Assembly (NCBI GenBank): GCA_951406725.2
Contig: OX597835.1
Coordinates: 45,694,001 to 45,758,000, forward strand
Direction of reading: 5' to 3'
Length of the DNA stretch: 64,000 bases
From: Octopus vulgaris
Lineage: Eukaryota
The translations under genes were made by a program, and so were the position numbers. Positions within the stretch are counted from its first letter, which is position 1; each line of letters starts with the position of its first letter. Below, piece after piece: positions 6,660 through 63,706 of the stretch. The notes beneath the pieces are model-generated. The model was not told where the DNA came from. It did not search any database and worked only from the letters and a program-made list of their open reading frames with translations.

Positions 6660-7100
6660 GTGTGTACACACCCATCCCCATATCTCGACACCCACACATA
6701 CATACAAACACAAACACATGTCCAGACCACCAGCCCTCTTTCACACGCACATACATACTCTCTTATACACACGCGCACCTTCGTGTTGTGGCCACCTTCG
6801 TTTTGGAAGTCACTTGACCCTGTGATCTCCCCTACTGGCCCTCTAGCGTCTAACGTCTGACCTCTGACCTCTGACCTCTGCCTGAAGTCAGAACGCCATG
6901 ATAGATCGTTAGCTCCTACACGCATTTTTTTCTCCTTGTTTCTCTCCTTGTTTTTTTTCTGTGTATCTTTCTGTCGAAGACCGTAGGGTCGAAACGTAAA
7001 AGACTTGTTCTATTTCTATTCCTGAGCGCCATACTCATACATTTGTTTGTTTGTACTCCACCTGCCTTCGTCTTTTGTTTATTTTCGTAAAGCTTCCCAT
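6660..7100 (+). mobile_element. Hammerhead-bearing repeat family A (Penelope pLTR-like), copy 1; 3' end abuts (TA)n
   Basis: Homologous to 7290-7480 and 12554-12950 (both reverse); contains the hammerhead-like motif at 6966-7003. Confidence 0.7.
6966..7003 (+). ncRNA. Minimal type I hammerhead-like motif (variant core CUGUCGA)
   Basis: UCUUU-CUGUCGA-A-GACC(GUAG)GGUC-GAAA-CGU-A-AAAGA: 5-bp stem I, 4-bp stem II, palindromic ACGU stem III. Confidence 0.65.
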
Positions 7101-7289
7101 TATATATATATATATATATATATATATATATATATATATATATGTATATATAGCATTATATACATATATATATACATATATACATATGAATAGATATGAT
7201 GCATATATATAGATATGTATATATAATGTATATGCATAGTTATATATATATATATATATATATCATATATACATATATATATATATATA

Positions 7290-7480
7290 ACGGGAAGCTT
7301 TACGAAAATAAACAAAAGACGAAGGCAGGTGGAATACAAACAAACAAATGTATGAGTATGGCGCTCAGGAATAGAAATAGAACAAGTATTTTACGTTTCG
7401 AGCCTACGCTCTTCGACGGAAAGATACACAGAAAAACCCCAGAGAAACAAGGAGATTAAAAATGCGTGTAGGAGCTAACG
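7290..7480 (-). mobile_element. Hammerhead-bearing repeat family A, copy 2 (inverted relative to copy 1)
   Basis: Reverse complement of 6907-7100, separated from it only by a TA-rich microsatellite; motif at 7387-7424. Confidence 0.8.
7387..7424 (-). ncRNA. Minimal hammerhead-like motif (core CCGUCGA)
   Basis: rc: UCUUU-CCGUCGA-A-GAGC(GUAG)GCUC-GAAA-CGU-A-AAAUA. Confidence 0.6.
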
Positions 7481-7827
7481 TATATATATATATATAATAT
7501 AATATAATACACACACACACACACACACACACATATATATATATATATATATATATATATAGTTGTATTTGGGGATGGTCATTTTTGGGCCAAATAAACA
7601 CACGCACTACATATTCGTTTTTCACGCGTTTATTACTGTTCTTATTCTAACTCATTTCCATTGTCCGGAAATCTTTCGTCACACAGTTGTGACCTCCTCT
7701 ATTTGTATTCATTAAATTTAGCGCCGATTTGTGAGTTTGATTCTGGCTACGGTTAGCTCATCAATGTTTAGGTCATTTGTATTTAAAAATCATCGCTTTA
7801 AATCGGAGAATATATATTATTATTATT

Positions 7828-8206
7828 ATACAGAATATGAAAATGGAGGAATAGATTTCTTTCAGTCATCAACTTCCAGATATTAACAATTCATATAATT
7901 TATTAACTAATTATTTAGATTAAATAGGAACATCCAAATCCAACAGAATAAGACAGAATAAAATAATATACATCAATAAGTAAGATAATACAATAAGAAT
8001 AATACATATAAATAATACATATAAATACGTATTATTCTTTTGGTATTATCTTACTTATTGATGTATATTGTTTTATTCTGTCTTATTCTGTTGGATTTGG
8101 ATGTTCCTATTTAATCTAAATAATTAGTTAATAAATTATATGAATTGGTATTATCTGGAAGTTGATGATTGAAAGAAATCTATTCCTCCATTTTCTTATT
8201 TTGTAT
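7828..8206. repeat. Long near-perfect palindrome (about 178-bp arms, about 23-nt spacer)
   Basis: 7828-8005 is the reverse complement of 8029-8206 with few mismatches (e.g. ggaacatccaaatccaacagaataagacagaataaaa / ttttattctgtcttattctgttggatttggatgttcc). Confidence 0.95.
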
Positions 8207-8740
8207 TATGAATTTGAGGTAAAACATTTTACCTTCGCCCATATAATACAATAAATGAATTAATTGCATTGCAATTCTAAGCATTTATGTATTATACTTC
8301 TGGGTACTCTACTGGCAGTATATTCGATCAATGATATCCCATAGTGGGTTACACTCATAACCCCTGTCTCACTTTGTATTATTATTATTCTATATTATTC
8401 TACAGTTATTATTATACTCTAAGCCTTCCATAATAATGTTCTCTCCGTAACTTACAAAGCGCTTCTGGTTCGTTTACAAATATTATATGTAGTATTACAC
8501 AGTTGAAGTATACATTCATTTAATTTCTCTGCAATTGATGGCTAAACGTTTGGCTCAATCGGGTGCGCAAAGATCCGTGTTGCGGATGATTTGTTAGTTC
8601 GATTCTGGCTAGGATCAGCTCATTATTTATTTGAATTTAAAAATTGTCGGAGAATATATATTTCTCTCTCTCACTCTCTCTCTCTCTCTCTCTCTCTCTA
8701 TATATATATATATATATATATATATATATATATATATATA

Positions 8741-8945
8741 GTTAATCCAAACAAGAAAGCACAAAAAAAACACAACAACGCGAGGACGTGGAACAAATAC
8801 AGTATTATTGGACGCTCAGGAATGAAGGAAAGAAGGAGGGTTTAACGTTTCGAGCGGAGCTCTTCGTCGGAAGCATAGGAGAAGGAAAGATCCAGAGAAG
8901 GGAAGAGAGAGGAAAAAATCGCCAACGGTACACAAGCGGTCACAT
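8741..8945 (-). mobile_element. Hammerhead-bearing repeat family B, copy 1; flanked by (TA)n
   Basis: Reverse complement of 21761-21970; motif at 8840-8874. Confidence 0.75.
8840..8874 (-). ncRNA. Minimal hammerhead-like motif (core CCGACGA)
   Basis: rc: GCUU-CCGACGA-A-GAGC(UCC)GCUC-GAAA-CGU-U-AAAC; one mismatch in stem I. Confidence 0.6.
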
Positions 8946-61217: not shown

Positions 61218-61425
61218 AAGCGGTGAGCTGAGAGAATTAGCAGGCCGAACGAAACGGTTGGCGGCATTCCGTCCGTCTTTACGTTTTCATTTCAAATTCC
61301 GCCGGAGTCGACTTTGCCTGTCATCGTTTGTGGGTCGATGAAATAAGTACCAGCTGAGCACTGGGTGTTTATATACCCTCCACCCGCGAAATTGTTGAAC
61401 TTGTAACATATTTGAAACCATTACA
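61218..61425 (+). mobile_element. SINE family 3
   Basis: aagcggtgagctgagagaa...caaattccgccggagtcgactttgcctgtcatcgtttgtgggtcgatgaaataagtaccag. Confidence 0.75.
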
Positions 61426-61554
61426 TGTATCTACTCAGACTTTGCTCTCGCTCTCCCTCCATCTCTCCCTCTCTTTCCCTGTCTCTTTCTAACTATCGAT
61501 CTGTCTACACACAGAAATACACACACATATATATATATAATATTTTTAAAAATA

Positions 61555-61860
61555 TTTTACTTGTTTCAGTCATTAGCCTGCGGCCATGCTGGGGCGCAGC
61601 GTTTAAGAATTTCAATCGAACGAATAGACCACAGTATTTACGGTTTTTAAGCCTGGTATTAATTCCAACAGTGTCTTTTGTCGAACGGCTATGTTACGGC
61701 AGGTAAACACACTGCCCGGCTGTCAAACGGTGGTGGATACAAAAAAATACACAAAGACACACGCACACACACATATATGTATGTATGTATGTATGTATGT
61801 ATGTATGTATGTATATACGACGGTATTCCTTCAGTATCCGTCTTTGAAATCCACCCACAC
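61555..61860 (-). mobile_element. SINE family 1 diverged copy
   Basis: ttttacttgtttcagtcattagcctgcggccatgctgggg...gtaaacacactg..tgtcaaacgg. Confidence 0.7.
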
Positions 61861-62089
61861 ATGCACACACACACACACACACACACACACACACACACAC
61901 ACACACACATATATATATATATATATATATATATATATAATGATGTGTCCTGGCATGTACCCCCTTCAATATCTACCTGTTCGCTATGACTCTTTTATTC
62001 AGTACCAATATTGCTCATGAAAATGGCATTAATATCCGGAACCTTTTCGATGACACCCTCTTTCAAACAAGACTATTTAAATCAGTTAT

Positions 62090-63040
62090 TTTTTTTTAAA
62101 CTTCATCTGAAGTATGTTTACGACTTAGCTGCTACAGCTGATGACTCATTTCTCTTCCAGAATATTGCATCATTCCTGCACAATGCTTCCACGCAAATAG
62201 TATTTACCATCAGCCCCGAAAAGCCTGCGGTGATGCAATATTACTCACGGACAAAACCCTACCGCAGAAACTACATGAAAAACAATGTACCTCAGAAATA
62301 TACATCATGTTTCTGCCATCTTGGACGCATATTTACGGATTCAGCACCTTTGATGAAGACACCTCTAAGTGCAGCAACCCGGTTGCTAATTTGTTTGGAA
62401 GATTCAGTTCTAGGGTATTCACCAACTTATGCCTTCGTTTTCCTACCAAAATTGTAGTATATCGAGCCTCTGTGATCTCCAGACTGCTGAACGGCTGTGA
62501 ATGCTGGCAATTTGTAGACGGCATCTCAAACAGATAGACGTTATTCATGTTAAGAACATTCAAAGAATTTCTTGGCATTTCTTGAGAACAAAAGATTCCC
62601 CACCACGTCATACGTCAATGAGCAGGAATTCCAAGTGTTAAACACATCTTCAAACACTGTCTTCTGCGGATGCCGGATAATTGCCTTCTAGAAATTGTCC
62701 TCTTCGTACAACTCAAAGCTAGAGATTATCATCATAATATCCCCAAAAAGAAATGCAGAGATCAGTTGAAGAAACTTCTCCAAGTGTGCAAACTTCGTTT
62801 ACCTCAGCTTCGAGATCTCTGACAACATCATACGTCTTGGCGCAGGGTTTGCGACGAAGGACTCAATATCTCGGAGCAACGTCGACAACGTCATCTCGAG
62901 GAAAAACGACATCAGCATTAAGCTAAAGCCAACCCCAAAACATTAAACGTTTTGCCTCTTCTGTACGCCGCACAATTTGCGAACTCATAACTGGACCAAA
63001 CAGTAATCCGTCAGCTCACCAAAGAGGAAAACCTTGTCAT
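62090..63040 (+). pseudogene. Decayed RTE-clade LINE RT C-terminal region
   Basis: ..ATADD.., FCHLGRIF (cf. F.YLGS), TKIVVYRASVISRLLNGCECW (cf. TK.KVY.A.V...LLYGCE.W); stops and frameshifts. Confidence 0.75.
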
Positions 63041-63156
63041 CAGCAACAATGAACAAATATATATATATATATATATATATATATATATATATATATATAT
63101 ATATATATATATATATATATATATATATATATATATATTTATATATATATATATAT

Positions 63157-63706
63157 ATGAAAATAACAATGCAATACGAAAGTATTGCTTTCCAGTAAAA
63201 GATAGCCCGTAAGGGTAAAATTATACATATAAAAGTATATAAATGGTACAACGCGGTACCGATATTTACTGGAAAATAGCGATCGTAATAAATACGACGC
63301 TATTGTATAGCTTCACTGCGTATATACTAGCAAAGCCGTGTGTGTGCAACAAACATGAAAAAATTTATCTTACCTCTAGGAGGGACAATGAAAAATGAAA
63401 AACCTAGAAACGGATAATGCAGGACCGGTTTCAGACTCTTCAAATACGTTTGACAACGTAGATTTGATTTGTCCTCATCAGCTGCATATACCTAGACAAA
63501 ATTTCAAATGTTGCCACACCTATGCCAGTACACTCGTCTGAACGCCAAAACGTTAACAGAACGAGAACAGTGAAGAAGTCTCAATGAAAATAATAATGCA
63601 ATACGAAAGTATTGCTTTCCAGTAAAAGATAGACCGTAAGGGTAAAATTATACATATAAAAGTAAATAAATGGTACAACGGGCTATCTTTTACTGGAAAG
63701 CAATAC
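63157..63706 (-). mobile_element. Hammerhead-containing unit bracketed by about 100-120-bp direct repeats (pLTR/retrozyme-like), ending at (TA)n
   Basis: 63157-63275 is repeated at 63584-63700 (427-bp period); hammerhead lies between the repeats. Confidence 0.65.
63417..63487 (-). ncRNA. Type I hammerhead ribozyme with canonical core
   Basis: rc: AUGCAG-CUGAUGA-GGAC(34 nt)GUCU-GAAA-CCGG-U-C-CUGCAU. Perfect 6-bp stem I, 4-bp stem II, palindromic ACCGGU stem III, GUC triplet with predicted cleavage after 63423. Confidence 0.85.

Follow-up and report, generated by a model that had tools for sequence, protein, structure and literature searches.

The stretch of DNA analysed here is a 64-kb window of the Octopus vulgaris genome (64,000 nucleotides of contig OX597835.1, positions 45,694,001 to 45,758,000, assembly GCA_951406725.2), in which several short repeats carry a hammerhead ribozyme motif near the 3' end and stop at tracts of alternating TA. 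These repeats comprise two families that we call A and B, a unit at 63.4 kb and a head-to-head pair at 36.7 kb, and they are accompanied by a truncated Naiad, which is a Penelope-like element (PLE), by a high-copy family D and by long interspersed elements (LINEs) (Table 1). Tandem repeats make up 22.5% of the window. There are 97 TA tracts of at least five units, and a random window position has TA within 125-150 nt in 11-13% of cases, so that being near TA is by itself a weak criterion.

Table 1. Features of the window, by position (UTR, untranslated region; C3, U4C and A6U denote positions of, and changes in, the hammerhead core).
Feature	Position	Strand	Description
A1	about 6700..7100	+	CA-rich 5' part; minimal hammerhead, core C3 at 6971, A6U; 3' end on (TA)21
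Degenerate (TA)n tract	7101..7289	.	common to A1 and A2, which lie tail-to-tail
A2	7290..7480	-	core C3 at 7419, U4C and A6U; TA on both sides
Hammerhead-like motif, not supported	7664..7701	-	two core changes, no stem I
B1	8741..8950	-	210 nt; core C3 at 8870, U4C; TA on both sides
Naiad PLE, 5'-truncated (3' UTR)	11099..11868	+	by-eye comparison with published Naiad_Obim and Naiad_Ovul
A3	12555..12974	-	420 nt; core C3 at 12685, A6U; TA on both sides
B2	21755..21969	+	core C3 at 21835, U4C; 3' end on imperfect TA run; high-copy family
Family D	22047..22198	-	high-copy; 5'-truncated at (TA)25; tail-to-tail with B2; only the CUGAUGA half of the core
Tx1-type LINE, 3' part, and second truncated copy (32946-33512)	30788..33512	+	each in (TCTA)n
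Head-to-head pair between two TA tracts	36528..36945	+	forward copy with decayed hammerhead (C3 at 36744) and inverted piece 36528-36628
B3	44764..44834	+	terminal 70 nt of family B, without hammerhead; then (TC)27, then (TA)10
A/B-like 3' terminal module	55928..56011	+	without hammerhead; 3' end on (TA)18
63.4-kb unit	63158..63706	-	inverted cap, partial upstream copy and 427-nt monomer; 3' end on (TA)n
Canonical type I hammerhead (63481)	63417..63488	-	6-bp stem I, CUGAUGA, extended stem II, GAAA, palindromic AC-CG-GU stem III, GUC site

Copies of A and B were called by self-BLAST and alignment within the window. The two families are homologous over about 200 nt (65-68% identity, 124/183 to 137/206 columns; z 8-11, reached by none of 200 shuffles), and the downstream motif noticed in a sequence-only reading of this DNA (ttcctgagcg..ca..ccac) is a real part of this similarity. 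Because of this identity A and B are, judging from their sequences, two subfamilies of one lineage and not independent arrivals. That reading had counted three copies of A and two of B with a hammerhead motif, and we found all five, each running at its 3' end into (TA)n. The core lies 129-130 nt from TA in A1, A2, A3 and B1, and B2 ends 134 nt past its core; measured from the start of stem II, the A and B copies end after 121-126 nt. The 5' ends of family A are variable, the copies being 190, about 400 and 420 nt long. A2, which is 96.6% identical to A1 over 145 nt, is truncated 60 nt ahead of the core, and the 5' limit of A1 is approximate and lies outside TA. In family B the 5' limits of B1 and B2 agree within about 5 nt. 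A fixed 3' end with variable 5' truncation, a trait of endonuclease-bearing (EN+) PLEs, is therefore seen among the window copies. None of the five copies occurs in head-to-tail tandem, and no partial tandem, inverted copy or one-sided tail was seen in them. A covariance model of the five motifs detected no further copy in the window, and a five-copy A/B profile detected the module near 56 kb (55928-55996, E=2.6e-6). This module closes a GT-rich 700-bp stretch (55300-56011), which may represent the 3' UTR of a longer element related to it.

In all five copies the motif has the same layout: stem I (4-5 bp), core, an extra A, a 4-bp stem II opened by G-C, GAAA, CG, UH and stem I again. As far as the accessible parts of the cited papers go, here and below, it displays all four hallmarks of the minimal hammerheads of Cervera and De la Pena 2014 (PMC4209133). 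EN+ PLEs also typically carry a type I hammerhead, minimal or canonical, close to the 3' end, and A and B share this trait with the reservation that their cores have one or two changes, namely U4C in B and A2 and A6U in every A copy. Pairing is kept in 91% of 45 stem cells, with one double-sided change per stem, compared to 18-49% in slid controls. A descriptor allowing a single change was not significant alone (6 observed vs 3.3 +/- 1.8 shuffled; 5 vs 0.7 +/- 0.8 with tighter stems), and so the case for a hammerhead rests on repetition and stem conservation. Pattern scans for canonical cores with short loops miss family A, due to A6U, and the 63.4-kb motif, due to its long loop. There was no hammerhead among the Rfam matches listed for the whole window (150 of 335), which were microsatellite-driven miRNA and snoRNA matches and U6, and a pattern scan of metagenomes gave two matches to one identical, bacterial-looking sequence without a hammerhead, which we attribute to chance. 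As for activity, U4C is reported to lower it in vitro and yet to support a viroid in vivo, A6C to be weak, and A6U is unmentioned in the accessible text (Perreault et al., PMC3088659); minimal hammerheads were inactive as monomers (PMC4209133).

To measure the association with TA, element ends were fixed by copy-to-copy homology, and at least four TA units had to lie within 5 nt. This held for 5 of 6 A/B 3' ends, compared to 3 of 68 control ends (Fisher p=2e-5) and 0.6% of non-repeat positions; five other cut-offs gave p values of 4e-4 to 2e-3. The control ends came from 34 other repeat segments (42 minus the 8 of A, B and the 63.4-kb unit), and they include an abundant two-part short interspersed element (SINE), some of whose ends touch TA. 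A1 and A2 sit on one tract, and their ends are thus not fully independent. TA is also found at the 5' junctions of A2, A3, B1, D and the Naiad, at differing element positions. TA at different truncation points indicates that it is the target, because a 3' tail cannot explain it. Furthermore, A1/A2 and B2/D face each other across one TA tract each, as is expected since (TA)n is a palindromic target. We infer targeting from these junctions, no empty allele having been seen. Among merged TA clusters of at least 8 units, 13 of 49 touch one of 14 listed PLE-type ends. PLEs use a fair share of the TA tracts and may lengthen them, although most tracts have no identified PLE end, and the proposal that such elements add to the microsatellite load stands at most in part. 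The 5' junctions at 7480, 12974 and 11099 all read (TA)n and then CGT, by chance or by a junction preference.

The 63.4-kb unit is built differently. Its 427-nt monomer (63159-63585) is preceded by a 93-bp partial copy (63586-63678), which repeats the monomer's 3' end, and by a 29-bp inverted cap (63678-63706) that lacks the last 23 nt, i.e. a one-sided tail. The cap starts at an imperfect internal palindrome of the monomer. As the sequence-only reading had noted, the unit is followed by TA; the direct repeat stops exactly at the tract, and no TA is present where the partial copy meets the monomer. Its canonical hammerhead has z=-3.1 and a local Rfam HH9 match of 26.2 bits (E=2e-4, under the gathering score of 52). 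The predicted fold of the monomer is far stronger than that of shuffled sequences (z=-8.9, 0/100) with the hammerhead formed, part of this strength being due to internal palindromes. This unit is the only one in the window that shows the retrozyme trait of a non-coding monomer of a few hundred nt with a canonical core and a stable fold. At least two tandem units with a full hammerhead each, a further retrozyme trait, were absent at this locus, which is a 1.2-mer with one hammerhead. We regard the unit as a likely non-coding passenger of the retrozyme type. The label retrozyme-like, which had been given to these elements in general, thus applies to this unit and not to A or B, of which no copy is in head-to-tail tandem.

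At 36.7 kb, the inverted piece reaches about 85 nt further 3' than the forward copy, its outer end being defined solely by where TA starts, and the pair contains a 19-bp perfect inverted repeat (36610-36628/36926-36944). The motif at 36744 has an intact core, a 3-bp stem II, 5 of 6 stem I pairs and GUG at the cleavage site. It appears from these letters to be a decayed but credible hammerhead, in agreement with the degenerate motif proposed at 36740-36791, and the pair is flanked by two TA tracts. The other degenerate motif of that proposal, at 7664-7700, is at chance level, since equally loose motifs number 5 in the window vs 3.1 +/- 1.9 in 20 shuffles. With this motif not above chance and A and B being one lineage, the description of multiple distinct elements was overstated. 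A partial tandem or pseudo-LTR (long terminal repeat; pLTR), an inverted 5'-truncated copy and a one-sided tail are marks of PLE insertion (PMC8557442, Fig. 2 legend), and such marks were found at the 63.4-kb unit and the 36.7-kb pair.

Two further elements bear on the TA niche. Compared by eye, the segment 11099-11868 corresponds to the terminal 770 nt of the Naiad_Obim consensus (Craig et al. 2021 supplement); its 5' junction is on (TA)34, and it carries a reversed half-core, GAAA...CUGAUG. Similarity to the Naiad 3' UTR without a canonical hammerhead was found by eye only here, and not in A/B or the 63.4-kb unit. Family D, overlooked in the sequence-only reading, came to light in the contig alignments described below. 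Its other copies continue upstream of 22198, where a GAAA precedes CUGAUGA by 24 nt, an arrangement like that of the Naiad half-core. We considered by eye whether family D or the half-core of the Naiad could be a type II hammerhead and rejected this, as there is no stem I hairpin.

The abundance of B and D was estimated with sequencing contigs aligned to 21726-22201, with 21726-21763 and 21922-22017 masked, i.e. both B boundaries; 20 of the 24 listed runs contain part of 21726-23850, and no RNA run is listed among them, which says nothing about expression. In run X1, 21,234 contigs fell on 21726-22201, and the summed depth at the B hammerhead was 7.1 million, compared to 46 for a contig nearly identical to the locus; summed contig depth is no copy number, and up to 31-fold overlap among short contigs is probably to be allowed. 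We infer thousands to about 100,000 copies of family B. In X13, a run with another organism label, the depth centres on the hammerhead, which is the part that is best preserved. The canonical U4 accounts for 28% of depth in X1, 22% in X6, 23% in X8 and 41% in X13 (contigs on B2); the site is a CpG, so that part of the U4C change may be decay. Contigs of family D continue into the AT-alternating bin 22030-22045 (depth 157k vs 172k in X1, 162k vs 167k in X13), and 7 of 32 pieces listed start at 22031, which is an indirect hint, for family D only, at a genome-wide association with TA.

We consider it probable that the hammerhead repeats are 3'-terminal (pLTR) pieces of several PLE families, which were inserted into pre-existing TA microsatellites by the PLE reverse transcriptase (RT) and GIY-YIG endonuclease. 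The endonuclease would nick a TA tract, and reverse transcription primed at the nick would start at a fixed internal site about 120-125 nt past stem II, giving the constant 3' end. An early stop or a fold-back could then produce 5' truncation, partial tandems and inverted caps, and the split tract would leave TA on both sides. Later copies could land in one tract in either direction, because (TA)n reads alike on both strands, and so form tail-to-tail pairs such as A1/A2 and B2/D. The hammerhead would be inherited from the PLE end and is likely not the target selector. In Poseidon of the anole, the open reading frame (ORF) starts at stem II, reverse transcription on nicked AT-rich DNA begins 111-118 nt beyond that point, and catalysis by the hammerhead is not required (PMC11167929); the 3' geometry of A and B, at 121-126 nt, is alike. 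The PLE origin and (TA)n targeting put forward in the sequence-only reading are thus supported by the hammerhead, the junctions and the insertion marks.

Several observations weigh against this explanation. No autonomous partner was found in the window or the Craig supplement for A/B, D, the 36.7-kb or the 63.4-kb units. The motifs of these elements, including A/B, had no match in the accessible supplement, where line breaks could hide single motifs. Upstream of A1 there is no coding remnant, and neither A1 nor the 56-kb module contains or follows an ORF, the copies being truncated. The 3' end of B3 is on (TC)n with TA 53 nt further, and that of the Naiad copy is on TAGG-(GA)n, both being exceptions to the TA rule. 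A1 and the 63.4-kb unit have TA on the 3' side only, their 5' ends lying outside TA. Other repeats touch TA too, with 8 of 68 ends within 15 nt. The stem covariation is weak over five sequences, its score being reached by 39 of 500 shuffles, and is hence only suggestive. Finally, none of the contigs on 21726-22201 spans that stretch or shows an empty allele, and the 3' junction of B is masked.

The preference for (TA)n is not new for PLEs. It is the preferred Naiad target, with a linker-mediated bias cited for Neptune (Craig et al. 2021, PMC8557442), and it is listed in the supplement for Naiad_Obim, Naiad_Ovul and 26 of 27 families in the Hydra clade, almost all of them with a hammerhead close to the 3' end. 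The microsatellite-homing guild that had been proposed for this window is therefore a known PLE habit, present already in the Octopus elements of that list. Hydra-clade PLEs such as Hydra-1_Obim of Octopus bimaculoides (hammerhead at 2403 of 2507) resemble A and B in having the hammerhead about 100-200 nt from the 3' end, in the (TA)n preference and in the genus. However, their hammerheads are canonical in the core and have a stem III of 3-4 bp, which together with a Hydra-type ORF marks the clade, whereas A and B have changed cores and, lacking a stem III loop, do not show this mark. The Hydra-1_Obim motif, as given in the supplement, matches no unit in the window. The Octopus Naiads have in common with the units here the (TA)n preference and, in the window, the truncated copy, and their reversed half-core (GAAA, 23-24 nt, CUGAUGA) resembles family D. 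In contrast, they lack canonical hammerheads, while A/B and the 63.4-kb unit, whose motifs are complete, do not match Naiads in sequence. The minimal hammerheads of metazoan PLEs (Neptune and Poseidon clades; PMC4209133) are like A/B in the extra base after A9, the G10.1-C11.1 pair, the palindromic 15.2-16.2, the 4-5 bp helix I, the single dispersed motifs and the nearby opposite-strand pairs, and differ in a U3-A8 swap instead of U4C and A6U. Non-autonomous PLEs of the MRC1 type in Chlamys (Craig 2021) are also non-coding passengers with pLTRs and 3' similarity to autonomous families, but they belong to green algae, and the octopus units were seen here without a partner.

Whether the 63.4-kb family alone is an active retrozyme is close to an even question, in our view, leaning slightly towards no. 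Animal non-LTR retrozymes (Cervera and de la Pena 2020, PMC7229834; Li, Clavereau and Pollet 2026, 10.64898/2026.07.22.740005) are likewise non-coding, with a canonical type I hammerhead, a repeat unit (427 nt here) and a strong fold. The present unit differs in being a 1.2-mer with one hammerhead, in slightly exceeding the 200-400 nt quoted for their monomers, and in its PLE junction marks (inverted cap, tail and TA target).

It is also quite possible, if somewhat short of an even chance, that A and B are mere truncated 3' ends of a long autonomous PLE of the Neptune or Hydra type, which would leave the targeting unchanged and alter only their autonomy. The variable 5' ends of family A fit this, as does the contig depth on B, which falls steeply towards the 5' end. 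Most PLE minimal hammerheads are single motifs in truncated copies (PMC4209133), and the Naiad of the window is just such an end. On the other hand, B1 and B2 start at nearly one position, loose contig ends in X6 and X8 repeat that 5' segment, no ORF remnant was found upstream of A1, and the fall in depth may reflect masking and divergence. A and B are likely non-autonomous, and we propose that B behaves like a short solo-pLTR passenger.

A bolder version of the passenger idea is tentative and, on balance, unlikely: that B, with its sister A, is a very abundant SINE-like parasite of PLEs, in which the stems are kept and the core is relaxed because the fold serves as a handle for PLE proteins and not as a ribozyme, and that the 63.4-kb family is a true retrozyme with PLE junction marks. 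If true, the latter family would be direct evidence that PLE enzymes which target TA also insert retrozymes, TA tracts genome-wide would be made longer and split up by successive landings, and the short units would be compact substrates for two open points, the purpose of the PLE hammerhead and the mobilisation of retrozymes by PLE enzymes.

It is improbable that all units are active retrozymes that cleave themselves, circularise and spread via circular RNA. The 63.4-kb monomer would suit this with its canonical core, its fold and its partial tandem, but it has one hammerhead and not two. Moreover, the A/B copies are not in tandem, their cores are changed at positions reported to lower activity (U4C and A6C in PMC3088659), and minimal hammerheads are inactive as monomers.

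Even less probable is the suggestion that (TA)n is a 3' tail which the elements produce themselves, from a template or by slippage, seeding microsatellites at whatever random site they land in. TA is more consistent at 3' than at 5' junctions, and A1 and the 63.4-kb unit have it only 3'. However, the five TA-bearing 5' junctions disfavour a tail, the internal junction of the 63.4-kb tandem has none, B3 ends on (TC)n, and 36 of the 49 long TA clusters have no listed PLE end. Chance adjacency in a repeat-rich window with so many TA tracts, which does account for the motif at 7664-7700, is hardly credible for the rest and largely refuted for A/B by base-exact junctions at homologous positions and by the comparison with other repeat ends.

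Insertion by PLE enzymes being our preferred explanation, what appears to be new is an abundant and apparently uncatalogued lineage whose hammerhead core is relaxed, together with a retrozyme-like unit that bears PLE junctions. The A/B lineage was not found in the literature searched; the O. vulgaris repeat paper (PMC13282606), whose accessible part counts 31 PLE families as recently active and says nothing of ribozymes, may hold these families in its supplement. The defined ends are a useful annotation for an abundant octopus repeat lineage, and several PLE families share the TA niche within one 64-kb window.

Other elements of the window are as follows. Both LINE copies lie in (TCTA)n, as previously noted for the Tx1 LINE; the segment 30788-32263 matches zf-RVT (E=6e-8) and RVT_1 (E=2e-4), and the putative label Tx1 is that of the earlier reading. 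Pfam searches of 13 read-through frames of the window gave no PLE-relevant hit. A decayed PLE-like RT at 3100-4780 (-) was recognized by motif inspection, with no Pfam hit and an Atlas lead only. Back-to-back with it, and directly before a SINE fragment, lies a full-length U6 snRNA copy (4793-4898, +; 76 bits), which was possibly retro-copied. The abundant two-part SINE (5089-5464, 20132-20572, 46592-46987 and others) has a central (CA)n/(TA)n, and some of its ends touch TA. ARAGORN found no tRNA in the window, and hence no tRNA-like head of a tRNA-derived SINE, although a decayed head would be missed.

A further small repeat, with the ending tcggag(a/g)atatatat, is present in two to three copies close to TA runs (7726-7810, 8585-8655, 8969-8985). 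A 113-bp inverted repeat (95.6%) around an AT-rich core at 7830-8204 resembles a fold-back element or a miniature inverted-repeat transposable element (MITE). A 560-bp fold-back element lies between two TA tracts at 13047-13606, with inverted repeats at 13085-13117/13573-13605 and a 200-bp central palindrome; it could be a MITE or a head-to-head PLE pair. A 3' remnant at 61990-63057 (+), which by inspection and without a Pfam hit we take to be an RTE-like LINE, stops at the (TA)n of 63058 and there faces the 63.4-kb unit tail-to-tail, and 874-1323 (+) is presumably a Tc1/mariner-like transposase remnant, again by inspection. At 27379-27790, a 130-bp unit of tetranucleotide repeats is present in 3.1 copies of 98% identity, a recent duplication of a compound microsatellite.

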